In this document: positions 27,801 through 59,761 of the stretch, in pieces
Layout of the letters: every line of letters starts with the position of its first letter
Numbering within the stretch: the first letter of the stretch is position 1
NCBI GenBank assembly: GCA_051294905.1
Contig: CM119372.1
Span: forward strand, 186,001 to 250,000
Source of the DNA: Botryllus schlosseri
Lineage: Eukaryota
Direction of reading: 5' to 3'
DNA: 64,000 nucleotides
Position numbers and translations under genes: made by a program
Notes under the pieces: model-generated
What the model was told of the DNA's origin: nothing
Databases searched by the model: none
The model's input: only the letters and a program-made list of their open reading frames with translations

Positions 27801-30800
27801 TTCGCGCAGTGTTTCGTAAATCTCATGTGGACCTAGCTGCAAATTTGGAAAAATGACTGTAGTTGTAGTTCTCTAGTTTTACCCGCCAGTTTTGAGAAGT
27901 AAGTAGTTCTAGTTGCGAGCTCATAAACATGAGTAGTTATACTTCTAATTACCTGAGATCGTCAAAGTAGTCACTGTCGGTACTTAAGTAGAAATAGAAG
28001 TGACGCCGTAAATTTCTACCCAAGTAGATGCAGTGGTTTACAAGAAAGTAGAAAGGCAAGTATTCTAGGCCCAGTTTTGAGGAAGTAGTGCAAGTAGGTA
28101 GTATCTGCTTGAAGTGCTTTGAAAAGTATAGATACTTCGGTGCTGTTGGACACCTTCCTACCTTTTCATCGTATCGTAGACTTTGTGATGTTGTGAAATG
28201 ATAAAATTATTAATAATAAACTGATATTGACACTGGCGCTATAGTGGACACTTCTATGACGCCTACCCTCGGGGCTCCGTATCCAGGTTTTCCGAACGGG
28301 AAATAGTCTTTCAGCTGTTGCAAATCCTCTTCCCTTTCCTGCCTCTTGCGAACTTCCTGCATCTTGCGCGACTCCTTATGCAACCTGATGAAGTCCGCCT
28401 GTTCGTCGGCCTGCCTTTTCTGGCGTCGAATCTCGGCGGAACTGTAAAAACGTACCAAATTCCTACAAGTCCGCGACTCGACACCAAAAATAACATCACG
28501 TTTTGTTTAACATTCTCAGGTTGATTCGATTCTCGCGTCTCTCGGCGTCTGACAGCTCGCGAACATTTTCGGATCCGAAGGTGAAACCTCTAGCCGGAGT
28601 CGGAGGAAAAACCGGATTCCCTGGAATATTATTGCTGCAGTACAATTCTCAGTTTAGGTCAAAATTGAGTATCTTAGTGATTCGATTCTGAATCGAATAA
28701 GGCTTCTGGCCGAATATTCACCAGAGGTGGTCTGTAACGAAGTAATTCTACTTTTCGAAGTATTTCAGGAAGATTTTGCTTACTTGCACGACATAAATTC
28801 ATCGTTTTCACTTTTTGAGGCAGAACTAGACAAAGTACTTGCTTTTTCAATGGCTTGGAAATATCTACTTCTACAGCAATCGAAAGAATCATCTCTAACT
28901 CGATTCAGATTCGATTACCAAAATCATCGTGCCTAGGTAGGATGAACAGAGATTTCTATAGGACTCCAGATAATGATGATATTGCACTAATAAAGACACA
29001 TTTCGTTTCTAAGTGTCACATTCCTCATTGTTTAGCTTTAGCTAATCGCTTGTAAGGGGCTGTGGGTTTGCAAAATCAATTCGATGTCACAGTTGTATCT
29101 TGACAACCAGCGTATCACCCGCTGAGAAATGCGGTTGTGTAAACACAGCGTACTGATGGCAGCGATGGTTTTGTTTACATAGTTGACTCAAAACCAAGTG
29201 GTGTGCTCTTAACAGAAGTAGAATGTATCTCATCCCAAATGGCGATGCGATTCAATTAAATTTTTGTGAAGAGACCGCGTAAAATGGACAGAAGTAACTA
29301 AATTCTATTGGCAATTTTATAAAATTGTTACGGTATCTGAAAAAACGATGAACTACAAATTTGACTCCTAACACATTTGAATGAAATATTCATATTTATT
29401 CCCGAAGCTTTACGGCTGACCCTCGTCAGGGGATCTCGTCAGCAATATTGCGAGAATTCGAATAACTATGCTCAACAACAATATATGTCGCTAATTATGA
29501 CGTCGCACATGAAATATATTAAGTTAGAAAAACGAGAGAACTGTATAGCGTTGGCATGGAGATAGCGTAGCAAAACAAGTTAATGCGCGATTTTGAAATG
29601 ATACACAAATTCCTTCAGTTGGCATAGACTAGGTTTACTCATAGTGATGATGGTGGACTCAAGAACAGACAAATGAAATAAATTGCGACCCTTAGCCAAT
29701 AAAGAGAACATGTCCTCCTGATAGTTAGCAGCACATGTATGATTTTCTAGTAAATGTTTGCCGATAGAAGACTTTTCACCCGTAGCCTGATTATGTTCGA
29801 GAACAGCGGATTGTTAGGTTGCGATTTCGAGAAATAAGATTTGACAGACGGTGGAATGTGTTCTTTGATACGGTCCTGCAACCGTTTGGAAGTTCTCCCT
29901 GCGTATCGACAATCGCAGTGGCACTTGAATTCATAAATTACGTTACTTTGTTGTAAAGCCGGGAAAACGTCCTTTCGAAATTTATGAAAATACATCAGCC
30001 CAAGCTTTGTCAACAAAAGGAGTTCCTGTACAATCTTAAAATAGTACACTGATCGACCTCTTATTTGAGATCTCATTTTATGCTGGTGACGTCATATTTC
30101 GAGATACGATTGTTGATAGACAATGTTCTTTCCAATTCTCTACTAGTTGCTGACGATTACCCCTGATGAGTGTCAGCCGAAAATATTTTGGTTTATTTCA
30201 ATATGAATATACTGTTCAATTGTATACTGAACTTCTACTTGAGTACGCATATTGACTACTTTGGTAACCTCCCACCGTAAATACTACTTTTTGGAACCCA
30301 AAATGTTATGCTCTAATAACTTTGCTGTTTCGGGTCGGAATTCGTGCCAAAACACGTCGTTTTTTTAGACAGCCTATCAATTCCATGGGGTAGCCCGTAA
30401 AACTTGAAAACGAATTTTTCTTGTACTTTTCAAAGTACTCCAAGTAGATATGGACCTGCGTTACTTCTAATTCTACTTGAACACCGATGGTACATTGACC
30501 ACCTTACTTGTCACGCTCTTAGTTTTGTAAAGTAGAAAGTAGTTTTGAGATATGTTTTCATCACCTTTATCAGTACTTGAGTAAGTTTTGGCAACTTGCA
30601 CTAGCTACACGAGTGGTCAAGTTTTTAAACTACTTCGACTTTGACAGGTTAAAATTACTTACTTATTGCACTTTTGATTTTGTAAAATGTAGTTTTTGAA
30701 CACACCTCTGACTAGAGAATTAGGAAGCGGGAATTTTTTCTCTCCTTCTCGATTCCCAATCGCCCCCGTAATGGGAATTCTCGGCTGCCGGAGATCGTAA

Positions 30801-32215: not shown

Positions 32216-34128
32216 GATTTTCAAACTTTGAGGTGTATTTCAAGGAGGTTCCATTGCCCTGGTTAGATTTTAATGTATATTTTCGGAATCAGTGCGACAG
32301 TAGCTTTCAAATAAGATCAACTTTATTGAATTTAAGCACGCGGGTCGTCCGCTATGGGATTAGCAATTATGTTGCGTTCAGATTGCTGAGCAGTAATTCC
32401 CTCCGGGCAAGCAAGCGTGACGACGGGTGTTGCGTATCCATCCGTAGGTTAGTTATCTATAGTTGCACAATGCACACCCAGATGAGCGACTAGCTTTCGA
32501 ATTATATATCTTGATGATGTCATCTAAAAATGTAGCAAGTTTCAAGATTGCCACTAACTGATTAGGGTAGGGTAGTAGTTTCCTTATCAAAGTCGAGTAT
32601 CTATAAATGTGATATGCCATCTAACCTCCGGTAAATATTGTTGCGATTGTTTCGCTGCGATTGACCAAATGGACTATACATTCAGTCGAGCGTGACCTAA
32701 AAATGGGAAAACGGGAGTTTCCGTTTCACAGTCACATTCGATAATAACATTATTTACATATAATTTTATATCAAATCAATGCACCACAAGATTGCAATAT
32801 AATGAAAAGATAGAAGGGCGCCGAAAAGTCTTGGGGTGGTCTTCAATCAGAAACTCACCTTGGCCTACAGCAGAGGTCTCAAACTCAAATGTGCTCGCGG
32901 GCCAATTTCCTAGTTTTTGATGACGCCGCGGACCGCAGCATCAATAATAGGGATAGGCTATTCAATGTATAATTTCCAAGTAGGCCTTATTTGTCGGGAC
33001 GTTGCAGACAAGCATTCCACAAACATCGTGGATATGTAATTTACTATTGTATTATTCACGCTTGACACGGAAAAAAATCACATGTATTATATTTGAATAA
33101 AATTGTTTTTGTGCCGGGCATAATTTTTTTTTAATTAATGAGTTATAGACATCATACGAGAGGATGCATCATGACATCGTAAAACTGTCGGATTATAATA
33201 TTGCAGCTATGCTAGTGGACCTTTGATGTGCCACAATTTTATGTAGAATATTTTAAAATATACTGAAGATTGATCTCATATCAGAGCATTTGAGCGGTTT
33301 AGCTTAGTACTGGTTTTGATATAGTCGTGAGGCTATTGTTACTGTCATTGCCAAAGTCAAACTGAATCAGCGTTAGATTTTGGCTTCGATTATTATTGGA
33401 ACATATCAATAGCAACTTAAATATAATTGCTTTTTAACCTTTTTAGCGATCTAACCCCTCGTGCTTCCAATGAGATGTCTCCTGTCTATTTTCAACACAA
33501 TTTCTGATGCCCATTCACATAAAATCGCGCGTAGCGCGACGACTATTTTCTAGTTGAATAGATTGGTCCAGAAAATATATTCCGCAGCATATAGGGCTAA
33601 TTCCACAATGCATCTCGTACACCCTGATGTGGTGCTTCGTACCCCGATGGGGTCTACGGACCCTGGTTAGGAACCCCTGGAATAGACATGTCCAATCGGC
33701 GAAGAATTCATTGGTGTTACAGCTGTAGAGCTTACAAATATCTTATTCGCCACCGATAATAACATGGATAAAGAGAAAAAACAACACCCAGCATGTAACC
33801 AACTATACGTCACGGGGGTCACAGAATGCAACTGGTTGCAATACTGGCCTGATTAGATAGCTATATACCCTACGCAACGAAAGTTACCACCTTTTGATAT
33901 CTTACTATTTCCCATGACAGTTTCATAGATTGTTGCGTCCGTAGGATTACCAAGTCACCGTTCCGAGTCGCAAGTCCTTCTCTGATTTGAACATTTGACC
34001 CGACTCAACTCGAGTCATTTTTATTTAATCACCTAGTCAATCCGAAATCGAGTAACTTTACGAGAAGGTCGCACCAAACCAAATCACAATTTTCAGTCAC
34101 GAAAGTAGTAGGTATGATCGGTCGCGAA

Positions 34129-34430
34129 CTAACATGGGCTCTTATGGGCCCGCTCGCATGTCGCCGCGAAACTCGTGTTGGCATATCGCGCTTTTAGACC
34201 CCCCCCCCTTCCGCTGGCACATCGCCATTGGTTCTTATGGGTGCGTTCGCATGTCGCACTTTCAGGTATAGTCATCTCTCGCACATCGCATGGAAAACTC
34301 GTGTTGGCACATCGCACTTTTAGGTATAGGCATCTCTCGCACATCGCATGGAAACTCGTGGTCGCATTCGCCATGTGTTCTTATGGATGCGTCGACATAT
34401 CGCCCTTTCGGGTATAGGCAACTGTCGCAC
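34129..34430. repeat. Subterminal degenerate repeats of the Polinton-like end (mirror at ~49595-49895)
   Basis: Recurring GCACATCGC, AAACTCGTGTTGGCA, TCTTATGGG and AGGTATAG modules. Confidence 0.75.
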
Positions 34431-35764
34431 GGTGTTGAATATGTATCAAGTAAATAGTCATGTGAATGAAACTTTGTTAATGTGTATATCGTAAATTATT
34501 AAATATGATATAGTTTAGTCGTGACAAATGACCGATCGTGTTCTAAGTCTTTCCTCGCTATTGATTCCTACGTAACCTGAATAGTACTTTCCGATCGGAT
34601 TATTCGCACCTTGTATACCGCTGTTTCGCACCTACAGAATAGTCTGCTGTTCACAGTCGTGACTTCACCGCGATAGCGCAATTTTCGAATCAGTCGCATG
34701 GTAATGTTTTGCTATTTAGTTTACCACAGAGCCGGTGTAGACGACGACGATTCGAATACCAACAATAGCCGCGTTCACATACTAACACTCCAAAAAGGTG
34801 TGAAATATTTCCTACGACCACTCACAAGATAGCACATCAGAATAGTCATCTCTCGTGGTTTGATGTTACAAAGATAGGGATCACGCACAAGTAATATTTT
34901 GGTAATAAGTTTGTCACATAACCGGCGCTTCCAATACCAACAATAGCCGCGTTCACATATTAACACTCCAAATAGGTGTGAAATAGTTTGCAAACCAGGC
35001 GATCGCTGACAAGATAATGTCTCAGACATACGCGACTTGATGTTACAGGCATATCGATCGCTCACGCGGTGAAATTTTCGTAAGCAGTTTGTCACAGAAC
35101 TCGTAAAGATTTAATAAGTAACGAATAACAGACCGCCAGTGTCGGTAACTTGAATAGCGACAAATTGTCACTTATTTCTACTCTAACCCTAATCCTTTGT
35201 GAAGTGTACGCTTATTCAAAAAGGTGCGAAATAATTCTAAAATCCTACGATCGCTCACAAGATAACACCTATAAGACATAACCATCTCTCGTGACTTGTG
35301 GTTACATACATTGCAATCGCTACAATGTAATATGTTGGTAGTTTGGTGCAGAACTGGATTTCACGAGTCTGATATAATATGAATATTACCTATTAAGTAA
35401 TAAGCACCGAATAACAGAACCGTCGCAGACGGTGACTTGAATATCCAAGATTTGATACTTTCCGCGATCGCTATATGTTTCACGTTCACTTTAGTTGTAT
35501 GACAAGAATCATGCGAATATTCAAGCAATGTATCAATTTGACAACTTGAAATGAAACTTACTACACAGCTCAAGTTGATTCGTATCTGAATGTGTTAATC
35601 CGGTACAATTCTAATTAATTTGAGAAATCTTTTTAACGTGATCTTTTGATTCGATCGTAACCTGAATATTACTGACGCCGACTTTCAGTCACATTGAATT
35701 ATTCACACATTCGCGCCGCTGTTTTCACGCCTATAGAATCAATACCAACTATAACTCTACAAGA

Positions 35765-37515
35765 ATCAAGAATCACAAGTATGTGCATTATACAGTTATT
35801 GTCGTTGTCAACTTCAAATCAAACTCTTAATACAAACACGCATCTTATCACTTGTCAACTCTATCATGAAAATCCTCGAACCTGTATTATTAAGAATGTT
35901 ATAGTACGGCGTCGGAATCCACTCGCGAGATGTACTAAAGGTAAATTGAGATCACCCAAAATGAAATATTTGGACTTTGACATAGTCTGAATTGCAATAG
36001 ATTGACAAACATGACTACCAACTTTCAACCCATACATATTTAGAGATTATGCGCATGTTGATTTGAAACAAGTAATGACCATACAACTCTATTCACGACT
36101 GAGTTTTCCGTTTGTCAAATAGAGTTTCAGTAAATAATTTCACTATACTATCATGATATTCAAATGTGTTACTACACACAATAGAATCAATCAATGAAAT
36201 AGCACCTGTTGTAAATATTTCTTACTTGACAACCACTTGTACATACCGCGATCGAGTTGCGACACGATGAGTTAAATCGGAATATTTCCATCTATTTGTC
36301 GAAACCTTGTACAAGCTATCTGGTTATTTTTTCGTTGCAATTGAGTTAACGGAAATAGTATTACGTCTCGACATCTTACCATCTTACCATACTCCAAAAA
36401 GCCAACAAGGAAAAACCTAGTCAAGTAAATCGTTTGTAACTCACCCAATCAACTCAAACAGTATCAGTATGAAAACAGTCAAGCATACACGAGTCCATAC
36501 AATCGCCACAATCTAAAATCCATAGCAAGTTCGGTTTTAGACATATACCGTCAACTCGTCTTTTTTGTTCAACTGTAAAAGTCGTTACTATTCTGCGAGA
36601 CAAAGAAATTACTATGCGGTATATTTTGTAAGATAAAAGTAATTACTTCTCGGCGCCGGCGACTTGAGATTAACATAATATGTTTGAGTATGCGAGATTT
36701 GAAAGTCTGCCCAACATGTTGAGAATTCATTTCTTACAATCGAACGCAGGTGTTATATTGAAAATTATCATGATGTAAACATAAGGATTGACACATTGAT
36801 TTGACGTATGTAATAGTTGATCACGACTTGATTATTAAATTATTCGCGTTAATTAGACCCGCGTTGTGTTGAAAGTTATGACAGCAACAAACTTTTCGGA
36901 AACATTGTTATTAACATATTGATTTGTAAAACTATACTTGTCTGAAATGTTCTTGATTTGGAAGATATTCCGTGTTGGTACAAATCACTCTGCGTATTGC
37001 GGATATCAGCAAATATTTTACAAATGTAATTGTTTCCAGTACCCAAGACTAAAGATGAAACAACAATTTAGTTTGCTGATAAACAACCGGTACAATACTT
37101 TATCATCATAATCCGCGGTGAGAATTGAAACACTTTCGCGCATTACACGATGTCAAGATATCACACTAGGTGAATTGGCATACCGCCGCTTGAATAATAC
37201 CTAATCCGTTCGCACCATTTCACATACTTTGATCATTACCAAAGTAAATTGTGATATGTTTGTTAGATGCATCCAATTCAGTTAGAAATGTCTGGTGCAC
37301 AACAATCGTAATATCAAAAAAGTACTTGCTACACTGTTATTTGCTAAACGTGTTTTGCATTGTTGTTCATTTGTAGTATTGATTGAAATTGTTCTTGAAC
37401 CCTCAAATAATAATTCCTGACATGAAACCAAGCCGCTCAAAGTCGTTACCATCACGAAGATACAATGTGTACGATGTTTGTCAAATGAGTCCTACCTGGC
37501 CAACAGAAAACAATT
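35765..37515 (-). pseudogene. Mirror copy of the probable decayed pPolB, left arm
   Basis: Reverse complement of 46510-48260 within the palindrome. Confidence 0.45.
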
Positions 37516-39044
37516 TTCACTCACTCGAAATGAAACCAATGTGATGGTCTCCAAACGATATTTTGTTTGTGTCAAATACTTTGCAATGAACACATTTGCG
37601 TGGTTGAGCTTTACATCATCAAGCTGTTATTTGTAAATCAAGATTTCGGTAAACTTGTAAATGTATCGTTTAACTAACCGACATTTAGTGATTGGGGAAC
37701 ATACCAGACGATACACACCCATCTCCGAAATACTGCATTGATCTTAATTTCCATCATCGTGATAATCGAAGTACATTTCTTTCGAATTCGTAACAACCGA
37801 CTATGACATGATAAATTTTTGACAAGTTATGCTTGGAAGATTGGTTGCATATCGCGAAAAAAATAATATACCACTCATATTGATACTGTTACTCCATTGA
37901 TCGATATTTTCAAACGAGTAAAATTTATTACTTGAGTGTCCCCGCTTAATGTAAATGAAAACTCAGCCGTCTTTTAACATCACAAAGACATTGATAAAAA
38001 GTAGGCAATCAAACACAACACTTTGTACGACACTAATTATTGTTCCACACATCTCATTTCATACTAAATGTATACGAAAGATATTCATGACACATGAAAA
38101 TATTCCCATGCTACAAACCTGTACAATGATCGGTGGTGCTTTCAAACTGTTTCGATATCACAAGAACTTTATTGTCTGAATGGGTGTTCATGTATCTTAA
38201 TAATCAAATAGTTCAACACAGAACTAGTACGAACAGAAACATCAGAGTTGTTTACACAAAAGTTTGTATGTGCACAGTATGCGAATACCATGTGTAAGTC
38301 CAGCACAATTGCGGTATCCATCCGAGTTTAGTTAACGCAAATTTATTACAACGAGCCACGTAAACTTTCGTGAAAGAAAAGCATAGTCACTTCCAGAGGG
38401 TTATGTCAACGCCATAGCAGTAAATCAGCTACTCCAACAAGAAAGTACATATGTTTTCTAGTCACGGTCCTTACATCTTTCACATAGATCAATCTACTTT
38501 GCTAACGAAAAGTGCTGAGTCATCACATGATTGCCCTCACAACAAAACAGCTAGAAGATATTATCATACAAAAATATTCCTAACCCTTTGCGCACCAGTG
38601 ACAAATCATACAACAAACATTTTTTGTGAGTCGAATTGTTGTTCAGTGTCAAGTCTACCTGCTGAAACGTACATTAAAACAACACAGTCACAATTCAATT
38701 AAAACCACGAATCTATTTTCATTTCGTCACATACAGAAAAATAAATTTTCTTTCCCCAACACATACTTGTAACCAATCGCTTTCATTAAACACACAACTC
38801 CATAAAAGTATGTACTTTCTACAACATAGACATTCCGACGTAGTCAAGAAATATTTTTATTAATCAAAATCATCGACTTCTGTTTACGGTGTTAGTGTGT
38901 GCATGTCATACACGTGGGGCCCGTATTAAAATGGACACGACACAACTGAATGTAAGGAGATAGAAGTCTATCGCATAGATTTACATGTGGTCTTCGCTAC
39001 GGTTTCAAAAAAAAACGAATCATCTCTTTTGCATTGATCTAGAC

Positions 39045-40301
39045 CAGGGGTTCTCAGCCCTTGATTGGCCGTGGCCCATTTTCCGGTTTGAAAATGTGCT
39101 GTGGCCCACCTCTTATTTTGGAGTCATAATCCTGTTCAATGCGTGGTAATCGACTGCACCGATATGCCTATTTCTCTAAAATATGCGCATTTTTCTATTA
39201 ATTTACTGATAATATTTAAATGTAGTGTAGACCTCTCGGCCTAGTCAATCGCGCGAAGCGCGACAAAAATTCTCAAGTCGAATAAATATCCTCCAACAAA
39301 CGACCAACGAAATAATCTTGGGCCCTTCGAGGTCCCGCAATCGGGGTATGGGTGTAGCAGTTACGGCCTTGCTAGATCATTGGCTGAAACCCCTGTGTAT
39401 ATTATAATCGTCCGCTGCTCCATTTGCATCGCGAAACACAGTGATCAAATCCATGCACCCACTGTGTGATTGGGATTTTAGTTCCACTATTGTGGGGAAT
39501 AACATAATCATTATGGGCCAGCTTCAAACAATTCATTTGTGAATGGGGTATACTACAGAGAAGTGGAGAAAGATTTTTTAATATGCATGCAATAACACAT
39601 CTTGTACCAAACCAACTGAAGTTGCGATGTCAGAATATTCAATCCAATGATACAATCAATTCATGTGGCTCTTATATTATGTACGATGATATCAGGGCGG
39701 ACATTTTAAAACAACTCCAAATATTAATGCGCTCCGCTAAATCCTCAATCCATTACGATCCGTTACGGTGGTGCAGTATACCTCCACCAGAAGTTGCTAA
39801 TAATTTGCAATTACGGCTATTTTTATCTTACAATATTACGACTTGCCTTAGTAGCATACAGTAAATCAATACATCAATTACACTTCATTCCGAGTTTATT
39901 GGACACCCCTTTCAACGGCATACGACATATGCCCCAGCCCCTGCCGGAATACTTGGTTACTTCAGCATACCAGCCTTTCAGTTATTATATACTCGAAATT
40001 ATTTTAGTGGCTGTTAGCCGTAGGTTGCCATAGCCAGTTGAAAAAGCCACCGTTTCTCCCTCCCGTTTTGGACTTGTACATGCTGACGCCATACGTACCA
40101 CTACGTGTCATCAGAGTCGGGTGAAAAGCTTTACGTATAGCCTACGTATAATTCAATAATATGAATAAATTTTTAGCGATTAACGTGACAAATATAACTA
40201 AACTTACGTTAACTCTAAAATTTTCTAAATAGCTTTGTGGCCCACCTCAAATGCTCCTGTGGCCCACCAGTGGGCCATGGCCCACCCTTTGAGAACCCCT
40301 G
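39045..40301. mobile_element. Non-autonomous hAT element in the left arm of the palindrome
   Basis: TIRs CAGGGGTTCTCA...TGAGAACCCCTG; 8-bp TSD ATCTAGAC. Confidence 0.9.
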
Positions 40302-40519
40302 ATCTAGACCGAGCAAGTTAGTTAATGACCATGATTGTGTTTGTCATATGCGAATGATAGGGTTACTGTCAAATCTACATACAACAACCTTCTGGCACTC
40401 ATAATAGCGATTTCATTCTCTCCCTTCGTAGTCATATACCCCCAACTCGGCTTTTTTGTTCATCGACAGCTGCGTTTAACAAGACCAACGACACTGAACC
40501 CACGACGTTTACCTATGTA

Positions 40520-41000
40520 AAATTACCACTTTCACTTGGCAGTCCGTCGTTTACCTGGATAAACATATCATTTTCACTTGGAAATCTATTTTTTCCCTGG
40601 GTAACAAACCTTTTTCACTTGGAAGCATATGTTTTCCCTGAGCAACAAACCATTTTCACTTGGAAATATATTTTTCCCTGAGCAACAAACCATTTTCACT
40701 TGGCGGGCCGTCGTTTACCTGAGTAAAAATATCATTTTCGTTTGGACATCTGACGTTTACCCAGTGTAACAATACATTCTCACTTGGCCATCTAACTTTT
40801 CCCAGAGTAATAATACATTTTCACTATGAAATCTGACATTTCCCTGAGTAACAATACCGTTTTTACTTGGAAACCTATTTTTTCCCTGGGTAACAAACCA
40901 TTTTCACTTGGAAATATATTTTTCCCTGAGTAATAATCCATTTTCGCTTGGAGATGTGGTGTTTACCTAAGTAAAAATACCGTTTTCGTTTTGAAATCTG
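40520..41000. repeat. ~40-bp minisatellite, ~12 degenerate units (mirror at ~43022-43502)
   Basis: Example unit CATTTTCACTTGGAAATATATTTTTCCCTGAGCAACAAAC (40651-40690), repeated head-to-tail. Confidence 0.85.
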
Positions 41001-43720
41001 ACAACCACACACATCAATTTGGTATTTGCTGTATTGGCGAAAGTTTGAAATAGATTACAACGAACAGTGACGAAAATATACACGACAACCGGTTTCAGAG
41101 TATACTCGCGTCGGTAGCAACACATCTATATCATCGGTTAACCACACGAAATAACAATATACTCTTGTATATCGAAATGTATGCTTTGGAAAATGACGAA
41201 TATTGTATGTCCTGATGTGTGTGTGTGTGTGTCCGGGTTCGTACTTTAGTTTTTGCACAGAGTCCATACGTCCGAATAAAACACCACCTCGACTTTGGTA
41301 CCTGGTTGGTACATGGATAACGGCGGTCGGAAATCGACGAATTTAGGTTCTCGTCGTGCTAATAGCTCCGGGCTACTTGTGATTTTCCTCACACATGTTT
41401 ACTATATTGTGTCACTCTTTATTGGTCAATACATATCCCACCGCTCAGTCTAAAATCGGAAACCCGAGAAAGTATTAACCGGATCCGGATATCAACTCTG
41501 AATCAAAAAAACCAATGAAACATGGTACACCCCGTGTTTCCATGAAAATAACAAGACATTACACATCAAGTATACTTCACGATTGTTCATAGATACCAAG
41601 TATTCGCGTAAACGAGGTGTACATACATCATGGATAACATCATGGCCGGCATTACAAGCATCATGGACGACAAATTCATGTTCTCAAGTCTCATACATGA
41701 ACCGACTCTGTACATTCAATGTGGGGGGTAGATGACTTGGAGACAGACAAACACACATATTTGACCGTAACATGATCTTAGTATGAACCGACATGTATTC
41801 AACTTGGAGAAAAATGAGTAGCACCGTATTTCACCGAGATTGCATCTCCTTTCGTGGTTCACATCTTGATCTACCCCTTCACAAGGTAGTTCGGATTCTC
41901 AGACGGATTTACATCGTGTATCAGGAACTCCGAGTATAGTAAAGGCGGGATATGTAGTTTAATTACTTACTCACTACCCTGTATGTTTGTGATGGTCATA
42001 CCCTGCAAACTTTTTTGCTGATAACGTAGTGTTTCACCTTACATCAGTTGGTTCAATGTATGTACCGGGTTGTGAAAGGTGTAGCAGAATATCATGTCCA
42101 TCCGTTTTACCACCCGCATCTTGTCTGTGTCTTAGCACTAAAGGGTGAGGATGGAGAAATCTGCGGGTGGTAAAACGGATGGACATGATATTCTGCTACA
42201 CCTTTCACTTTTCTCCAAGTTGAATACATGTCGGTTCATACTAAGATCATGTTACGGTCAAATATGTGTGTTTGTCTGTCTCCAAGTCATCTACTCCCCA
42301 CATTGAATGTACAGAGTCGGTTCATGTATGAGACTTGAGAACATGAATTTGTCGTCCATGATGCTTGTAATGCCGGCTATGATGTTATCCATGATGTATG
42401 TACACCTCGTTTACGCGAATACTTGGTATCTATGAACAATCGTGAAGTATACTTGATGTGTAATGTCTTGTTATTTTCATGGAAACACGGGGTGTACCAT
42501 GTTTCATTGGTTTTTTTGATTCAGAGTTGATATCCGGATCCGGTTAATACTTTCTCGGGTTTCCGATTTTAGACTGAGCGGTGGGATATGTATTGACCAA
42601 TAAAGAGTGACACAATATAGTAAACATGTGTGAGGAAAATCACAAGTAGCCCGGAGCTATTAGCACGACGAGAACCTAAATTCGTCGATTTCCGACCGCC
42701 GTTATCCATGTACCAACCAGGTACCAAAGTCGAGGTGGTGTTTTATTCGGACGTATGGACTCTGTGCAAAAACTAAAGTACGAACCCGGACACACACACA
42801 CACACATCAGGACATACAATATTCGTCATTTTCCAAAGCATACATTTCGATATACAAGAGTATATTGTTATTTCGTGTGGTTAACCGATGATATAGATGT
42901 GTTGCTACCGACGCGAGTATACTCTGAAACCGGTTGTCGTGTATATTTTCGTCACTGTTCGTTGTAATCTATTTCAAACTTTCGCCAATACAGCAAATAC
43001 CAAATTGATGTGTGTGGTTGTCAGATTTCAAAACGAAAACGGTATTTTTACTTAGGTAAACACCACATCTCCAAGCGAAAATGGATTATTACTCAGGGAA
43101 AAATATATTTCCAAGTGAAAATGGTTTGTTACCCAGGGAAAAAATAGGTTTCCAAGTAAAAACGGTATTGTTACTCAGGGAAATGTCAGATTTCATAGTG
43201 AAAATGTATTATTACTCTGGGAAAAGTTAGATGGCCAAGTGAGAATGTATTGTTACACTGGGTAAACGTCAGATGTCCAAACGAAAATGATATTTTTACT
43301 CAGGTAAACGACGGCCCGCCAAGTGAAAATGGTTTGTTGCTCAGGGAAAAATATATTTCCAAGTGAAAATGGTTTGTTGCTCAGGGAAAACATATGCTTC
43401 CAAGTGAAAAAGGTTTGTTACCCAGGGAAAAAATAGATTTCCAAGTGAAAATGATATGTTTATCCAGGTAAACGACGGACTGCCAAGTGAAAGTGGTAAT
43501 TTTACATAGGTAAACGTCGTGGGTTCAGTGTCGTTGGTCTTGTTAAACGCAGCTGTCGATGAACAAAAAAGCCGAGTTGGGGGTATATGACTACGAAGGG
43601 AGAGAATGAAATCGCTATTATGAGTGCCAGAAGGTTGTTGTATGTAGATTTGACAGTAACCCTATCATTCGCATATGACAAACACAATCATGGTCATTAA
43701 CTAACTTGCTCGGTCTAGAT

Positions 43721-44977
43721 CAGGGGTTCTCAAAGGGTGGGCCATGGCCCACTGGTGGGCCACAGGAGCATTTGAGGTGGGCCACAAAGCTATTTAGAAA
43801 ATTTTAGAGTTAACGTAAGTTTAGTTATATTTGTCACGTTAATCGCTAAAAATTTATTCATATTATTGAATTATACGTAGGCTATACGTAAAGCTTTTCA
43901 CCCGACTCTGATGACACGTAGTGGTACGTATGGCGTCAGCATGTACAAGTCCAAAACGGGAGGGAGAAACGGTGGCTTTTTCAACTGGCTATGGCAACCT
44001 ACGGCTAACAGCCACTAAAATAATTTCGAGTATATAATAACTGAAAGGCTGGTATGCTGAAGTAACCAAGTATTCCGGCAGGGGCTGGGGCATATGTCGT
44101 ATGCCGTTGAAAGGGGTGTCCAATAAACTCGGAATGAAGTGTAATTGATGTATTGATTTACTGTATGCTACTAAGGCAAGTCGTAATATTGTAAGATAAA
44201 AATAGCCGTAATTGCAAATTATTAGCAACTTCTGGTGGAGGTATACTGCACCACCGTAACGGATCGTAATGGATTGAGGATTTAGCGGAGCGCATTAATA
44301 TTTGGAGTTGTTTTAAAATGTCCGCCCTGATATCATCGTACATAATATAAGAGCCACATGAATTGATTGTATCATTGGATTGAATATTCTGACATCGCAA
44401 CTTCAGTTGGTTTGGTACAAGATGTGTTATTGCATGCATATTAAAAAATCTTTCTCCACTTCTCTGTAGTATACCCCATTCACAAATGAATTGTTTGAAG
44501 CTGGCCCATAATGATTATGTTATTCCCCACAATAGTGGAACTAAAATCCCAATCACACAGTGGGTGCATGGATTTGATCACTGTGTTTCGCGATGCAAAT
44601 GGAGCAGCGGACGATTATAATATACACAGGGGTTTCAGCCAATGATCTAGCAAGGCCGTAACTGCTACACCCATACCCCGATTGCGGGACCTCGAAGGGC
44701 CCAAGATTATTTCGTTGGTCGTTTGTTGGAGGATATTTATTCGACTTGAGAATTTTTGTCGCGCTTCGCGCGATTGACTAGGCCGAGAGGTCTACACTAC
44801 ATTTAAATATTATCAGTAAATTAATAGAAAAATGCGCATATTTTAGAGAAATAGGCATATCGGTGCAGTCGATTACCACGCATTGAACAGGATTATGACT
44901 CCAAAATAAGAGGTGGGCCACAGCACATTTTCAAACCGGAAAATGGGCCACGGCCAATCAAGGGCTGAGAACCCCTG
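43721..44977. mobile_element. Mirror copy of the same hAT insertion in the right arm
   Basis: Reverse complement of 39045-40301; TSD GTCTAGAT. Confidence 0.9.
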
Positions 44978-46509
44978 GTCTAGATCAATGCAAAAGAGAT
45001 GATTCGTTTTTTTTTTTTTGAAACCGTAGCGAAGACCACATGTAAATCTATGCGATAGACTTCTATCTCCTTACATTCAGTTGTGTCGTGTCCATTTTAA
45101 TACGGGCCCCACGTGTATGACATGCACACACTAACACCGTAAACAGAAGTCGATGATTTTGATTAATAAAAATATTTCTTGACTACGTCGGAATGTCTAT
45201 GTTGTAGAAAGTACATACTTTTATGGAGTTGTGTGTTTAATGAAAGCGATTGGTTACAAGTATGTGTTGGGGAAAGAAAATTTATTTTTCTGTATGTGAC
45301 GAAATGAAAATAGATTCGTGGTTTTAATTGAATTGTGACTGTGTTGTTTTAATGTACGTTTCAGCAGGTAGACTTGACACTGAACAACAATTCGACTCAC
45401 AAAAAATGTTTGTTGTATGATTTGTCACTGGTGCGCAAAGGGTTAGGAATATTTTTGTATGATAATATCTTCTAGCTGTTTTGTTGTGAGGGCAATCATG
45501 TGATGACTCAGCACTTTTCGTTAGCAAAGTAGATTGATCTATGTGAAAGATGTAAGGACCGTGACTAGAAAACATATGTACTTTCTTGTTGGAGTAGCTG
45601 ATTTACTGCTATGGCGTTGACATAACCCTCTGGAAGTGACTATGCTTTTCTTTCACGAAAGTTTACGTGGCTCGTTGTAATAAATTTGCGTTAACTAAAC
45701 TCGGATGGATACCGCAATTGTGCTGGACTTACACATGGTATTCGCATACTGTGCACATACAAACTTTTGTGTAAACAACTCTGATGTTTCTGTTCGTACT
45801 AGTTCTGTGTTGAACTATTTGATTATTAAGATACATGAACACCCATTCAGACAATAAAGTTCTTGTGATATCGAAACAGTTTGAAAGCACCACCGATCAT
45901 TGTACAGGTTTGTAGCATGGGAATATTTTCATGTGTCATGAATATCTTTCGTATACATTTAGTATGAAATGAGATGTGTGGAACAATAATTAGTGTCGTA
46001 CAAAGTGTTGTGTTTGATTGCCTACTTTTTATCAATGTCTTTGTGATGTTAAAAGACGGCTGAGTTTTCATTTACATTAAGCGGGGACACTCAAGTAATG
46101 AATTTTACTCGTTTGAAAATATCGATCAATGGAGTAACAGTATCAATATGAGTGGTATATTATTTTTTCGCGATATGCAACCAATCTTCCAAGCATAACT
46201 TGTCAAAAATTTATCATGTCATAGTCGGTTGTTACGAATTCGAAAGAAATGTACTTCGATTATCACGATGATGGAAATTAAGATCAATGCAGTATTTCGG
46301 AGATGGGTGTGTATCGTCTGGTATGTTCCCCAATCACTAAATGTCGGTTAGTTAAACGATACATTTACAAGTTTACCGAAATCTTGATTTACAAATAACA
46401 GCTTGATGATGTAAAGCTCAACCACGCAAATGTGTTCATTGCAAAGTATTTGACACAAACAAAATATCGTTTGGAGACCATCACATTGGTTTCATTTCGA
46501 GTGAGTGAA

Positions 46510-48260
46510 AATTGTTTTCTGTTGGCCAGGTAGGACTCATTTGACAAACATCGTACACATTGTATCTTCGTGATGGTAACGACTTTGAGCGGCTTGGTTT
46601 CATGTCAGGAATTATTATTTGAGGGTTCAAGAACAATTTCAATCAATACTACAAATGAACAACAATGCAAAACACGTTTAGCAAATAACAGTGTAGCAAG
46701 TACTTTTTTGATATTACGATTGTTGTGCACCAGACATTTCTAACTGAATTGGATGCATCTAACAAACATATCACAATTTACTTTGGTAATGATCAAAGTA
46801 TGTGAAATGGTGCGAACGGATTAGGTATTATTCAAGCGGCGGTATGCCAATTCACCTAGTGTGATATCTTGACATCGTGTAATGCGCGAAAGTGTTTCAA
46901 TTCTCACCGCGGATTATGATGATAAAGTATTGTACCGGTTGTTTATCAGCAAACTAAATTGTTGTTTCATCTTTAGTCTTGGGTACTGGAAACAATTACA
47001 TTTGTAAAATATTTGCTGATATCCGCAATACGCAGAGTGATTTGTACCAACACGGAATATCTTCCAAATCAAGAACATTTCAGACAAGTATAGTTTTACA
47101 AATCAATATGTTAATAACAATGTTTCCGAAAAGTTTGTTGCTGTCATAACTTTCAACACAACGCGGGTCTAATTAACGCGAATAATTTAATAATCAAGTC
47201 GTGATCAACTATTACATACGTCAAATCAATGTGTCAATCCTTATGTTTACATCATGATAATTTTCAATATAACACCTGCGTTCGATTGTAAGAAATGAAT
47301 TCTCAACATGTTGGGCAGACTTTCAAATCTCGCATACTCAAACATATTATGTTAATCTCAAGTCGCCGGCGCCGAGAAGTAATTACTTTTATCTTACAAA
47401 ATATACCGCATAGTAATTTCTTTGTCTCGCAGAATAGTAACGACTTTTACAGTTGAACAAAAAAGACGAGTTGACGGTATATGTCTAAAACCGAACTTGC
47501 TATGGATTTTAGATTGTGGCGATTGTATGGACTCGTGTATGCTTGACTGTTTTCATACTGATACTGTTTGAGTTGATTGGGTGAGTTACAAACGATTTAC
47601 TTGACTAGGTTTTTCCTTGTTGGCTTTTTGGAGTATGGTAAGATGGTAAGATGTCGAGACGTAATACTATTTCCGTTAACTCAATTGCAACGAAAAAATA
47701 ACCAGATAGCTTGTACAAGGTTTCGACAAATAGATGGAAATATTCCGATTTAACTCATCGTGTCGCAACTCGATCGCGGTATGTACAAGTGGTTGTCAAG
47801 TAAGAAATATTTACAACAGGTGCTATTTCATTGATTGATTCTATTGTGTGTAGTAACACATTTGAATATCATGATAGTATAGTGAAATTATTTACTGAAA
47901 CTCTATTTGACAAACGGAAAACTCAGTCGTGAATAGAGTTGTATGGTCATTACTTGTTTCAAATCAACATGCGCATAATCTCTAAATATGTATGGGTTGA
48001 AAGTTGGTAGTCATGTTTGTCAATCTATTGCAATTCAGACTATGTCAAAGTCCAAATATTTCATTTTGGGTGATCTCAATTTACCTTTAGTACATCTCGC
48101 GAGTGGATTCCGACGCCGTACTATAACATTCTTAATAATACAGGTTCGAGGATTTTCATGATAGAGTTGACAAGTGATAAGATGCGTGTTTGTATTAAGA
48201 GTTTGATTTGAAGTTGACAACGACAATAACTGTATAATGCACATACTTGTGATTCTTGAT
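46510..48260 (+). pseudogene. Probable heavily decayed protein-primed family B DNA polymerase (pPolB), right arm
   Basis: By-eye motif remnants in the expected order: NCFLLA (46510), FEGSRTISIN (46618) and ILTADYD (46900), these three in one frame; then DFYS (47442), WILDCGDCMDSCMLD (47503), LNMYG (47982), TCDS (~48245). Compare Polinton pPolB motifs CFLWA, FExxNxISIN, VIYADFE, FYS, W...GEYxDLY..D, NSxYG and TDTDS. Many stops, frameshifts and deletions. Confidence 0.45.
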
Positions 48261-51200
48261 TCTTGTAGAGTTATAGTTGGTATTGATTCTATAGGCGTGA
48301 AAACAGCGGCGCGAATGTGTGAATAATTCAATGTGACTGAAAGTCGGCGTCAGTAATATTCAGGTTACGATCGAATCAAAAGATCACGTTAAAAAGATTT
48401 CTCAAATTAATTAGAATTGTACCGGATTAACACATTCAGATACGAATCAACTTGAGCTGTGTAGTAAGTTTCATTTCAAGTTGTCAAATTGATACATTGC
48501 TTGAATATTCGCATGATTCTTGTCATACAACTAAAGTGAACGTGAAACATATAGCGATCGCGGAAAGTATCAAATCTTGGATATTCAAGTCACCGTCTGC
48601 GACGGTTCTGTTATTCGGTGCTTATTACTTAATAGGTAATATTCATATTATATCAGACTCGTGAAATCCAGTTCTGCACCAAACTACCAACATATTACAT
48701 TGTAGCGATTGCAATGTATGTAACCACAAGTCACGAGAGATGGTTATGTCTTATAGGTGTTATCTTGTGAGCGATCGTAGGATTTTAGAATTATTTCGCA
48801 CCTTTTTGAATAAGCGTACACTTCACAAAGGATTAGGGTTAGAGTAGAAATAAGTGACAATTTGTCGCTATTCAAGTTACCGACACTGGCGGTCTGTTAT
48901 TCGTTACTTATTAAATCTTTACGAGTTCTGTGACAAACTGCTTACGAAAATTTCACCGCGTGAGCGATCGATATGCCTGTAACATCAAGTCGCGTATGTC
49001 TGAGACATTATCTTGTCAGCGATCGCCTGGTTTGCAAACTATTTCACACCTATTTGGAGTGTTAATATGTGAACGCGGCTATTGTTGGTATTGGAAGCGC
49101 CGGTTATGTGACAAACTTATTACCAAAATATTACTTGTGCGTGATCCCTATCTTTGTAACATCAAACCACGAGAGATGACTATTCTGATGTGCTATCTTG
49201 TGAGTGGTCGTAGGAAATATTTCACACCTTTTTGGAGTGTTAGTATGTGAACGCGGCTATTGTTGGTATTCGAATCGTCGTCGTCTACACCGGCTCTGTG
49301 GTAAACTAAATAGCAAAACATTACCATGCGACTGATTCGAAAATTGCGCTATCGCGGTGAAGTCACGACTGTGAACAGCAGACTATTCTGTAGGTGCGAA
49401 ACAGCGGTATACAAGGTGCGAATAATCCGATCGGAAAGTACTATTCAGGTTACGTAGGAATCAATAGCGAGGAAAGACTTAGAACACGATCGGTCATTTG
49501 TCACGACTAAACTATATCATATATAATAATTTACGATATACACATTAACAAAGGTTCATTCACATGACTATTTACTTGATACATATTCAACACCGTGCGA
49601 CAGTTGCCTATACCCGAAAGGGCGATATGTCGACGCATCCATAAGAACACATGGCGAATGCGACCACGAGTTTCCATGCGATGTGCGAGAGATGCCTATA
49701 CCTAAAAGTGCGATGTGCCAACACGAGTTTTCCATGCGATGTGCGAGAGATGACTATACCTGAAAGTGCGACATGCGAACGCACCCATAAGAACCAATGG
49801 CGATGTGCCAGCGGAAGGGGGGGGTCTAAAAGCGCGATATGCCAACACGAGTTTCGCGGCGACATGCGAGCGGGCCCATAAGAGCCCATGTTAGTTCGCG
49901 ACCGATCATACCTACTACTCACGAATCATCAACGGGTCATGTTTTATCATCATGATCTAGAAATGTGTCGTAATAGTTGATCATTTACCGCAAGGTAGCT
50001 TTTAAAAGTGAAAGTGAAGTCTGTTGAGATTTCAGTAATTTTTATAATAGTTTGAGGGTGAACTTTCAGTTCTTATATCTAAAAAAGATATATGGCACTT
50101 CAATATATTGTTGAATACTTAAAATTCCAAAATGCCGCCGCGGGCCGCACAAAATGCTCTCGCGGGCCGCGTGTTTGAGACCTCTGGCCTACAGCATGTA
50201 AATAGGGTTACCATATTTTGGAATCGGGAAAGGAGGACAAATTTAAAGACATTTTAAAAAACCCAAAAAAGGAGGACAAATCCTCCTAAAGGAGGACGTA
50301 CCTTACACGTAAATAAGAGGCATGCACACTGAATAAAATAAAGGATAATATAAAAGTAAGCTACACAAAGGAATGCTGCATGCATGACTTGTGCGTTGGA
50401 ACCTTGTAATTGGCGAAACCGTGGATTAGGAGTAGCGTAAAATTAGATTTACTGGAGTAAGTACGGTAAATAAGGAAATACTTTTGAGTACTTCAAAAAA
50501 GTAGAAATACTCGAGTAGGTGTTGCCTACTTGGACTGTCTCCTCAAGTGATTTTGAGTTTAGACAACTTCTACTTCACAGTTTTTGTTTTTTAGCTAAAA
50601 CTAGGCCTAGCGTTGGGACCCCGGGAAATCCCGATCCCGGGATCCCGGGATTTGAAGCAATCCCGATCCCGGGATTTGTGAACAGCATCTACCAAGGCCA
50701 TATCTCTTAATTTGGTAATAAAGCAGTGTCCCAAACTCGGCTGATTGTCTAGAACAGTGGCCTCAAACACGCGGCCCGCAAGAACTGTTTTTGCGACCCA
50801 CGTCGGCGTTTTGACTTTTCAAGCATTCGACAATATTAAACTCGAAAATTTCAGATTTCGAATTTGAGAACTTGAAATTTCATTCTGAAACCACTCCAAA
50901 AACCTGAATCGCTGTCACACATCAAACGTCCACTAGCTTCTAAATTATAATGCGACAGCTTTTACGATGACACGATGCATTTGTCGTCTCGCATGGTTTC
51001 TAACTGTCTATATAACTCCTTATGTCGCCAAATTATGCCAAGCACAACAATATGTTTAAAAAAATATTGAAAAATATGACTTTTTCGTGGCAACCGTGAA
51101 TATTACAATAGTGTATTACATTTTCACAATGTGTGTGGAATGCCAATCTGCAAGGTCCGACAAAAAAGGCGTACTGGGAAACACATATTATACCAATATT

Positions 51201-56349: not shown

Positions 56350-59054
56350 AGTCAGTCAGTCAGTCAGTCAGGTTTAATAATATTTTCATCTTTTCAAAAC
56401 ATCACAAGACTGCGATACAATGAAAAGATAGGAGGGTGTCGAAACAACTTGGAGTAGCCATTAAGATCAGACACCCACCTTAGCCTAGGCGAAGTAAATA
56501 AGAGGCATGCACACTGAATGAAAAGTAATGCAGAGAAATATAAGACGCAAGCGACAAAATGGGGTGGCATGTGGCGGAGGGCGAGGTCGATGTTAGGTCG
56601 TGGTGCGGTAATCCTGAAGACTGGCTAGTGTTGATTTAGAAGAAATTGCTTGTATTTCGACTTGAATGCGGACATGCTCGACGACTGACGGATAGCCGGC
56701 GAGATGCTGTTCCACAATTGGGGTCCGGCATACTTGATAGAGCAATGCGTTTTCTTGTATTCAGTCCTGATCATATGGTATAGTTGTTCTTCGTTGACGC
56801 GCGTGTGCTGTACTTGTGCGCTTTTGTCTCCGAGGTGAAGTATTCCTTGAAATTTGAGGGACATTGACCGCAATGGAACTGATACATAAACTTGGCAATT
56901 TCTAGCTTCCTCATATCTTCTAAGTTTAGAACACCAAATCTTTTGAGAAGCGATTTATCAGTTGCACATCCAGGCCCCCGTGGGGCTTTGGCAATGATAC
57001 GGATGATCCGATGTTGAAGTTTTTGCAGTGGGTCAATTGTATTCTTGCAGGCAGCACCCCAACAAAGAATTCCGTATTGTAACTTTGATAGGAATAGAGA
57101 GTTGAAGAGTATCAACAGCACGCTGACTGGCAGAATGTAGCTAAGGCAGCGAAATAGACCACATACCTTCGATAGTCGTGGTTTGAGTGATTGTATGTGA
57201 CTCTTCCAGGACATGTCCGAATCCAGTAAAACACCAAGGTATTTGGCGTTTTTAGTGTTGGAAATTGGTTGGCCAGCGATGTCAACGGTTAGGTTATCGC
57301 AGGAGTTCACGACCAATAATTGGGATTTCGCAGCATTAACCCGAAGGCTATTATGGGACGTCCACTCATGCACTTTGGGCATTTGATCACTGGTGACGGC
57401 ATTCAAGCTTGCGGTAGTAGGTGCGTGAGATAGGAGGTGAGTATCGTCAGCGAAGAGTGTGGTATTCAATGATGAGGTTTCAAAGATATCATTGACATAT
57501 AAAGTAAAAAGGACAGGTCCAAGAACAGAGCCTTGCGGAACACCACAGGTAACAAGGTGGGGGGAGGACAAAGTGTTGGATATCGAAACCATTTGATATC
57601 TCCCAGTAAGGTAGCTTTTCATGAGCTCTAGTTGTGGACCCCGGAACCCGTAGCGCGCCAATTTTGAGAGAAGAATACTGTGATCGACGCAGTCAAATGC
57701 TTTTTTTAAATCAAGAAAAATGTTACATCCCACACTTCGTTTCTCCAAGATGTCATAGTACTGTTCAGCCACTGTTAGCAGGGCATGCGAGGTTTGATGT
57801 TTTCTGCGGAAGCCGAATTGTTGTGGAGAAATGATAGACATCTTGGCGAGGAACGAAGACAGGCGGGAGAGGAGCAATTTTTCGAAAACAATTCCAATAC
57901 ACGGTAGGACAGATATAGGTCGGTAGTTGGTGACATTAGTTCTATCTCCGGCTTTGTAAACCGGGACAACTCTGGCAGTTTTCAGATAATTCGGGTAGAC
58001 ACCATTTTCTATCATGAAATTGAAAAAATGGGCGATGAGATGACCGATGTGTAGGCTAATCAGTTTTAAAAACCAGGCTGGAATTAGATCATATCCAACT
58101 GCCTTGTTAGATTTAAGTTCATGTATGGCAAGTACCACTTCCGTGGAAGTTGCTGGCTCGAGCAAGATGGATTGGGATACTGATTTAACCTCAGGCCTGG
58201 CCGACGCAGGTTTAGAAATAGATGAGGCGATATTAGGCCCTACATTGCAAAAATATTCATTGAAGTAATTTGAGATTGCCGCAGGATCTGTCAGATTGTC
58301 CCCGGTAGTCGAGTTCGTGATTTGCGAGACAGGCATGGGGCGTTTTTTCTGGTGCAAGAGCAATTTAATTCTTGACCAGGTTTTTCGAGTGTCCTTCTTA
58401 TGTTTGTTGAAGAATTTCGCGTTAGCTTTCGCTTTTGCCTTGGAGATATGATGGGAGATGAGATTTCTGAAGCGTCGAAATCTTTCTCGTTCGTCTTGTG
58501 AGGTGTCCTTGGTATCGAGTCTGTGATGCCACCGGTTACGTTTTCGGATCAGCTGCACCAACTTTGAAGACATCCACGGTACCCTGTTCAATTTTCGACG
58601 ACTTCTTGAGATGCGTTGAAGAGGTGCAAATTTATCTATCAGCCCTTTGATGGTGAACATGAACTCCCCAAATTGATCGTCAAAGTTGCTTTTGGTGATG
58701 TGTGGGAGAGTAGACGGATGAAAGAGATTGAACGAGGCCTCGTTGAGGGCATCTTCGTCAACGGATTCAGGGTGTCTGCTGAAGTGATGAGATTCAGCAG
58801 GTATGCGTTGTTGAGATAATATGCAGCCGATATAATAGTGGTCTTTTATTTTAGCAGATATAACAAAAGGGAACATTTCTTTGTCAAGCACGTTCGAATA
58901 CAAGTGGTCAATTAAAGTGCTTGATTTCTCGGTGATTCTCGTGGGCTGCGTGATCATTTGGCAGAGACCAACGGCTTTAACGGTGTTGGCGTATGAGTTC
59001 GATCTCCTATTGAGAAGATCTATATTAATATCGCCCATAATGAAACAGATCTTT

Positions 59055-59096
<42 letters not shown>

Positions 59097-59761
59097 TTTA
59101 TTTTCATCGAACCAAAATACATAACAAACGGCAGTGATGGTGGTACAGAAAATATGCGTGCACAGTATTCGGTATTAGATAGGAATGATCGATAAGACCG
59201 TGAAGGTCATCTAGTCTGATCACACCAGCATCTTGCACTGTTGATTTTATCCATGCTGTTTTCCATTGCCTCGGTGAATTCAGCGATTTTGTTCTTACTA
59301 TTAGGATGGTGGTATAATACTGCAACGAGAAATGATTTGTGTTTGCCGATTGGGTGGTCGATTTCTAGCCACAATTCTTCGCATTGCTCAATATTCAGGT
59401 TGTATTCCGAACAGATTTTGTAAGATATGTCATCGTCTACGTATATACCAACTCCGCCGTAAGTTTCGGGCGCTGGGATATATTCGAAGTTATAGCCCGA
59501 TATATTTACGTTCTCTGAGGGTTAATTCGGAAAATTTACTTCCGAGATTGCTACAAAGGAGGGAGTACTTTCCAAGTCACAGACCAATTTATGAAGATCG
59601 GCAAAATGTGCGCCTTTATTCCATTCAAGCCCTCCCAAATTGGTATGTATGAAGGAGATTTGTTTATCAATAGGGAGTTTTGACAGGAATGATGATGTCT
59701 CTTCAATCGATATGGTGGTGCATTGTTCGACGAGTGGAAAAGTACAGATATTGTTATCCAT
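56350..59761 (-). mobile_element. Near-full-length non-LTR retrotransposon (APE endonuclease plus RT; CR1/L2 group), inactivated
   Basis: EN motifs HTNLGGL, AISEV, GGVGIYV, MGDINID, TLIDHLY; RT motifs YRPISVL, QFGFR, FLDLKKAFD, GVPQGSVLGP, FADDT, KYLG. Lesions: premature TAA at 59522-59524, an insertion at 59059-59230, a frameshift near 56770. Stop at 56625, then 3' UTR and (CTGA)n tail at 56350-56370. Confidence 0.92.
59059..59230 (-). mobile_element. Short retroposed insertion (CR1-like 3' end with (CT)n tail) inside the LINE endonuclease
   Basis: 5-bp TSD TCTTG; removing it restores KINSARKICFIMGD; second copy at ~62549-62707 (+); GACTAGATGACC...GGTC motif. Confidence 0.85.

Follow-up and report, generated by a model that had tools for sequence, protein, structure and literature searches.

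A large palindrome in the genome of Botryllus schlosseri raises the question of how its two halves came to be joined at an asymmetric centre. The window analysed here is a stretch of 64,000 nucleotides (assembly GCA_051294905.1, contig CM119372.1, positions 186,001 to 250,000 of the forward strand), and all coordinates refer to positions within it. The original prediction regarded the centre as the record of a fold-back combined with the asymmetric loss of 258 bp.

Ends, arms and gene content of the element

The palindrome occupied 15,816 bp at 34104-49919, starting with AGTAGT and ending with ACTACT, and was flanked by perfectly matching 6-bp target-site duplications, CACGAA, at 34098-34103 and 49920-49925 on the plus strand. 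The left arm (34104-41813, plus strand, 7,710 bp) and the right arm (42209-49919, minus strand, 7,711 bp) formed terminal inverted repeats of 7.7 kb with an identity of about 99.8-99.9%, and the inverted repeats filled 97.5% of the element. The alignment of the left arm together with 42072-42118 against the reverse complement of 42162-49919 contained five substitutions and seven gap columns in 7,761 columns, the latter corresponding to three homopolymer length changes. The right half was thus the reverse complement of 34104-42118 lacking 41814-42071, as had been predicted. The end motif (AGT)2//(ACT)2, the 6-bp duplication and the terminal inverted repeats were all those of Polinton/Maverick elements, for which PMC8097293 gives (AGT)2//(ACT)2 or (AG)3//(CT)3 as end motif along with a 6-bp duplication.

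No Polinton core gene (protein-primed polymerase B, integrase, capsid proteins, ATPase or protease) was found in the element. None of the six frames of 34104-42208, read with stops as X, matched a Pfam family, and none of the five ATG-initiated ORFs of 120 aa or more in the window lay inside the element. The search of PHROGs with the six frames of 41000-42208 gave just two matches with E values of 0.2-0.3, and Rfam gave no match over 34000-42300. In viral contigs, the two patterns searched, one of them the exact element terminus, gave no match, and no autonomous partner was found in this search. The eight metagenome loci matched were all chance matches of 22-24 nt. The element is a gene-poor and apparently abundant repeat with Polinton ends; its abundance would follow from the presence of its contigs in a run (X9) holding contigs of just 1.5 million letters in total, a figure that gives no copy number. 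Outside the palindrome, a 783-aa ORF (56771-59122, minus strand) contained a reverse transcriptase domain (PF00078, E = 1e-33).

Both arms carried a 1,257-bp insert with 12-bp terminal inverted repeats and an 8-bp duplication (ATCTAGAC), located at 39045-40301 and, as its mirror image, at 43721-44977, which we take to be hAT-like from these terminal features. The insert occupied the same site in both arms; one arm was therefore copied from the other, or corrected to match it, once the insertion had taken place. The left arm measured 6,445 bp without the insert, and the element 13,286 bp without both copies. Size selection acting on the element was considered and rejected, the unit with both inserts amounting to 15.8 kb. 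A degenerate tandem array of about 12 units of 41 bp was located near the inner end of the arm (40504-41002; mirror 43020-43518), and the outer part of the left arm contained 32-bp subterminal repeats (34247-34348) and, near the terminus, diverged direct repeats of approximately 180 bp with 73-74% identity (34745-35340). Elsewhere in the window, a second and smaller inverted repeat of MITE-like appearance, with 238-bp arms that were 97% identical, was detected at 8005-8626, along with related copies at 8716-8894 and 29975-30236.

The apex and its relatives in public contigs

The centre of the palindrome (41814-42208) consisted of 395 bp, divided into pieces of 258, 47, 43 and 47 bp. The first was a plus-strand piece (41814-42071, hereafter U) that occurred once in the window, where its next-best matches were 11-14 nt long, and had no counterpart in the right arm. 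It was followed by the 5' stem of a small hairpin (42072-42118, plus strand), a loop of 43 nt (42119-42161) and the 3' stem (42162-42208, plus strand). The two stems were reverse complements at 47 of 47 positions, in agreement with every coordinate predicted for the perfect inverted repeat and its loop, and the right arm began at 42209, so that it adjoined the 3' stem directly as had also been proposed. The junction 42208|42209, equivalent to 41813|42072, contained 0 nt of exact microhomology. The loop had no second copy in the window, and the inverted copies were therefore separated by a single-copy 43-nt spacer, the arrangement of a fold-back. The small stem had a folding energy of -60.6 kcal/mol, and the apex region as a whole reached -145 kcal/mol, a value equalled by none of 100 shuffled sequences. 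The motif GTAGCA, present in the stem stretch 42078-42085, recurred at 41818-41823, at the start of U.

Of the 24 public sequencing runs listed, 20 contained part of the left half, representing five organism labels and 12 studies. No RNA run was listed among them, which carries no information on expression. The best run contained 0.79 of the sampled words, and the four other organism labels contained 0.38-0.45. The contigs of four runs were aligned to 41003-42208 only, at 85% likeness, giving 5,108 contigs for X1, 291 for X3, 55 for X9 and 73 for X8; the former three runs bear one organism label and X8 another. These relatives differ from the window by as much as 15%, and its direct parent may not be among them.

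The contigs crossed the boundary between the left arm and U. X8 record 22 (41701-41841, depth 67) and X9 record 31 (41724-41841, depth 15) both spanned 41813|41814, each with only 28 aligned letters on the side of U against a threshold of 31. Arm and U were also bridged by the joints 41792>41993, 41807>41886 and 41814>41934, and the continuity was further supported by X3 records 15-16, the former of which reached 41819. These contigs indicated that U is the native continuation of the arm and that the 258 bp are missing from the right arm, as had been predicted. Insertion of U into the left arm was ruled out by the contigs spanning 41813|41814. An exact 223-bp contig of X8, from the second organism label, covered 41810-42032, which is mostly U.

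Beyond U, the relatives matched the window over 42072-42077 and then departed from it; in X8 record 24, 238 unlike letters followed. One X9 contig (depth 11.5) contained the joint 42077>42194 on opposite strands, that is, the stem followed by the reversed loop. The second aligned piece of the relatives was 42114-42194, in which the match ended 5 nt past the loop and 42162-42194 was in native contact with the loop. The bin depths implied that 42078-42113 was uncovered in X8 and X9: a model consisting of a piece ending at 42077 and the piece 42114-42194, with nothing else, predicted depths of 2.52, 10.38, 11.5 and 2.03 for the last four bins in X9 (observed: 2.53, 10.4, 11.5 and 2.03) and of 13.41, 50.09, 55.5 and 9.79 in X8 (observed: 13.4, 50.1, 55.5 and 9.8). 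An X3 contig with a change at 42155 showed the same distance to its end. The stretch 42078-42085 matched neither piece of the relatives in X8 and X9, which resumed from the mirror position of 42086.

At 42164, the window has C, while the relatives have T, which breaks the stem; the depth of T was 4522/4522 in X1, 8552/8560 in X3, 11.5/11.5 in X9 and 55.5/55.5 in X8. The window letters at 42144 and 42164 were almost absent from the four runs. The order in the relatives was arm, U, an extra segment, a partial stem, the reversed loop, approximately five matching bases and unlike sequence. The extra segment, comprising at least 200 bases between 42077 and the returning stem, was observed in X8 only, where the best window match of a 30-letter loose end was 20/30. 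The view of 41814-42161 as contiguous parental sequence was not supported by these data, as the relatives break at 42077 and carry the loop inverted relative to U. The uncovered stretch 42078-42113 in X8 and X9 together with the T at 42164 indicated that the abundant relatives are not palindromic here, consistent with the alignment of the relatives at the apex over 42114-42194 alone in the same two runs, as expected for a non-palindromic parent. The predicted position of the turn-around point of the present copy, the loop at 42119-42161, was in turn supported by the contigs of the relatives.

The deletion joint 42208|42209 was absent among the 10 joints listed for the four runs, so it is rare or private and lacks confirmation by reads. 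The missing joint and the rare letters would fit a private event in an individual outside the four runs.

The loop also contained an ATG, preceded by a purine at position -3 and followed by G at +4, that begins a short frame (42151-42194, plus strand) and may represent the truncated 5' end of a small spacer gene. This ATG and an opposite-strand stop at 42039-42041 bracket the segment absent here. In the relatives, the distance between the two would leave room for a frame of about 95-105 codons, with a one-in-three chance that they are in phase by luck. Protein searches gave no match for one minus-strand frame of U (stops as X) and no homologue for the loop frame.

Proposed fold-back and deletion, and competing explanations

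We consider it moderately probable that the hairpin, in one copy or a small lineage of the element, is the scar of a U-turn in DNA copying followed by a one-sided deletion, and that it records an accident and carries no working signal. The fold-back mechanism here is of a known kind. After 42077 the relatives carry a segment of about 200 bp or more, which the present lineage would have lost or replaced; as both stems lack this segment, its loss presumably came first. A strand running through the arm, U, the stem and the loop would then have ended just past the loop, its last five or so bases would have paired with an inverted match 43 nt behind, and synthesis would have returned along the stem and U into the arm, covering at least its inner part and yielding a near-perfect palindrome with a 43-nt loop; the sequence beyond the priming point would have been discarded. 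In this step the order of the parts is observed and the priming is presumed. A separate break near the apex, at a distance of 47 bp from the loop, would later have deleted 258 bp of the original arm and been closed by end-joining without microhomology. The 47-bp stem would accordingly be the remainder between loop and deletion, with no function attached. Before these events the parent probably had a palindromic structure with a longer single-copy spacer, which would make the present apex a secondary fold-back.

The proposed priming site is CCGCA at 42114-42118 (plus strand), where the aligned piece of the relatives ends. As judged from the alignment ends, the five bases past the loop in this piece would be the inverted match of the five bases before the loop; mismatches near piece ends are not listed, and the length of 5 nt is itself an estimate. 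At least five inverted matches at this spacing occurred at about 0.2% of 20,000 random arm positions. The folding energy of the priming hairpin was -2.9 kcal/mol, and 42% of 1,000 random 53-mers from the arm folded equally well. The repeat and the loop together span 53 bp. For fold-back junctions, inverted microhomology of 2-8 bp is reported in humans (PMC3907307), and of 2-14 bp in yeast with a preferred spacing of 40-80 bp (PMC10766183).

In the relatives, stem and loop meet in the orientation of the right arm; the evidence is a single contig joint in X9, with which the piece ends of the three remaining runs agree. A self-primed fold-back leaves the native contact on the template arm, so that the left arm, which is intact, would be the copy. 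As this native junction is found on the arm that lacks U, a later deletion is favoured over a jump during copy-back. The original prediction had left the choice between these two open, and the jump is disfavoured by the stem-loop orientation in the relatives. This assignment of the copied arm would fail if the loop had later flipped between the two 47-bp stems, or if copying had switched to the opposite strand. It had also been proposed that a later deletion stabilised the palindrome. This part is doubtful, since a 43-nt loop may already be tolerated: repeat-induced recombination in HeLa cells was abolished when the spacer measured 42 bp (PMC3300023), and replication forks in eukaryotic cells no longer stalled frequently at a spacer of 52 bp (PMC7999016).

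Among the five substitutions between the arms, those at 42295 and 42378 in the right arm (mirror 41727 and 41644) were located 87 and 170 bp from the deletion junction (post-hoc P of 0.005-0.04). An exact and deep contig of X3 (record 15) has the left-arm letter at 41727, a position 4 letters from the contig end, which suggests that the change occurred in the right arm. On the plus strand, both right-arm changes read C to T and follow another C. They could reflect deamination of single-stranded DNA, with two cases at hand.

The strongest competitor, which we nevertheless regard as unlikely, is a single templated event. After copying arm, U and stem, the strand would have moved forward onto the opposite strand at the inverted match, copied the loop and the stem in reverse and then jumped 258 bp to continue down the arm. 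This would require one event instead of two, and a switch to the opposite strand would yield the loop orientation of the window without a later flip. The 53-bp span also lies within the preference of 40-80 bp for fork switching in yeast (PMC10766183), and a 6-nt direct repeat is found near both ends of U. However, the copies of this repeat are displaced from the two ends by 4 and 9 nt, a difference in register of 5 nt, and the microhomology at the junction is 0 nt. The event would moreover need a single-stranded template ahead of the 3' end, and the two substitutions beside the junction suggest, though weakly, later local damage.

A version without any deletion, in which the arms ended near 41813, U was part of the spacer and an inverted template switch of approximately 90 nt replaced the far spacer, would have the merit of needing only a local event, but appears rather improbable. 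Unbranched contigs cross 41813 (X8 record 22, and X3 record 15 up to 41819), and the single-contig depths of the dominant variant showed no clear twofold step from inner arm to U to loop (67, 61 and 55 in X8; 15, 11.6 and 11.5 in X9), with the caveat that contig depth is no copy number.

An artefact of assembly or long reads, such as a fold-back read of chimeric origin or a wrong join between similar palindromes, is very improbable. Long palindromes are hard to sequence, and the absence of the deletion joint from all four runs and the near absence of the window letters at 42144 and 42164 would agree with such an origin. On the other side stand the distinct flanks with the perfect 6-bp duplication, the differences between the arms (five substitutions and three indels) and the exact X8 contig across 41810-42032, while the best run, with 0.79 of the sampled words, may come from another individual, and a hole in the coverage proves nothing.

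The hairpin was also compared with resolution sites of the AAV ITR, poxvirus and protelomerase types. That it functions in resolution or turnaround, or is an independent MITE with its own target-site duplication, is hardly credible despite the perfect and very stable stem: perfection is expected from arms that are 99.9% identical, the abundant relatives run from U into 42072-42077, have one side only (the second stem is absent in X8 and X9) and carry the mismatching T at 42164 in 4/4 runs, the flanks share only TT with the right-hand Ts mirroring the end of the arm, and neither Rfam nor Pfam gave a match. The resolution site was rejected because the hairpin is not common to the relatives, and for the MITE no empty site was found, the relatives holding the loop and one stem as internal sequence.

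Related systems and meaning for Polintons

The element shares its (AGT)2...(ACT)2 ends, 6-bp duplication and 15.8-kb size with Polinton/Maverick elements and their non-autonomous derivatives (PMC8097293). It differs in lacking a polymerase, integrase or capsid gene, in the share of the inverted repeats (97.5% of the element) and in the hairpin nested at its centre. With human fold-backs (PMC3907307) and yeast ODIRA (PMC10766183), it has in common a single-copy loop, which here would be bounded by an inverted microhomology of a few bases. Its repeat and loop fit the size preference of the latter, whereas the loop is far shorter than the human spacers of 766-70,466 bp. Unlike those inverted duplications, the present apex is located inside a mobile, virus-like element and probably underwent a subsequent off-centre, one-sided deletion. 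In AAV snap-back genomes, for which PMC10924063 describes symmetric and asymmetric forms, one genome end is duplicated by self-primed copy-back, sometimes asymmetrically, as proposed here; AAV, however, is single-stranded with hairpin-primed, Rep-nicked ends, while the present element has Polinton ends and is integrated with a target duplication. The short terminal palindromes treated in 10.64898/2026.07.28.741278 are a different phenomenon.

The titles and abstract openings returned by literature searches for palindromic or non-autonomous Polintons mentioned no such apex. Non-autonomous and possibly palindromic Polintons have reportedly been described by Kapitonov and Jurka in 2006 or in Repbase, and the type of element is therefore not claimed here as unpublished. 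In the centre-break revision of palindromes, reportedly described by Cunningham et al. in 2003, deletions are said usually to remove the palindrome centre itself. The same asymmetry is gained there by end-joining near the centre, whereas the present copy has kept its loop together with 47 bp of stem.

If its priming site can be read as proposed, the junction would mean that Polinton elements are able to rebuild an arm from a few bases of inverted match, in parallel with chromosomal fold-back inversions and with the snap-back genomes of viruses. The scar is single and probably private and provides one data point. Its value lies in a joint count with other rearranged centres of this family, where jumps during replication could be told from later chromosomal repair by comparing the loop orientation with the arm that carries the deletion.

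The replication of Polintons in animals has been inferred and not observed. As a tentative possibility, the apex may have been made during extrachromosomal, protein-primed copying, in which a satellite re-folded at a new internal 5-nt match and rebuilt its entire second arm and terminus including the insert. It would have lost a small spacer gene, yet would still have integrated cleanly with a 6-bp duplication. If this is true, only the ends would be needed in cis, every apex of this type would preserve a dated trace of Polinton DNA copying, and a genome-wide comparison of apexes would make the self-synthesis model testable from sequence.
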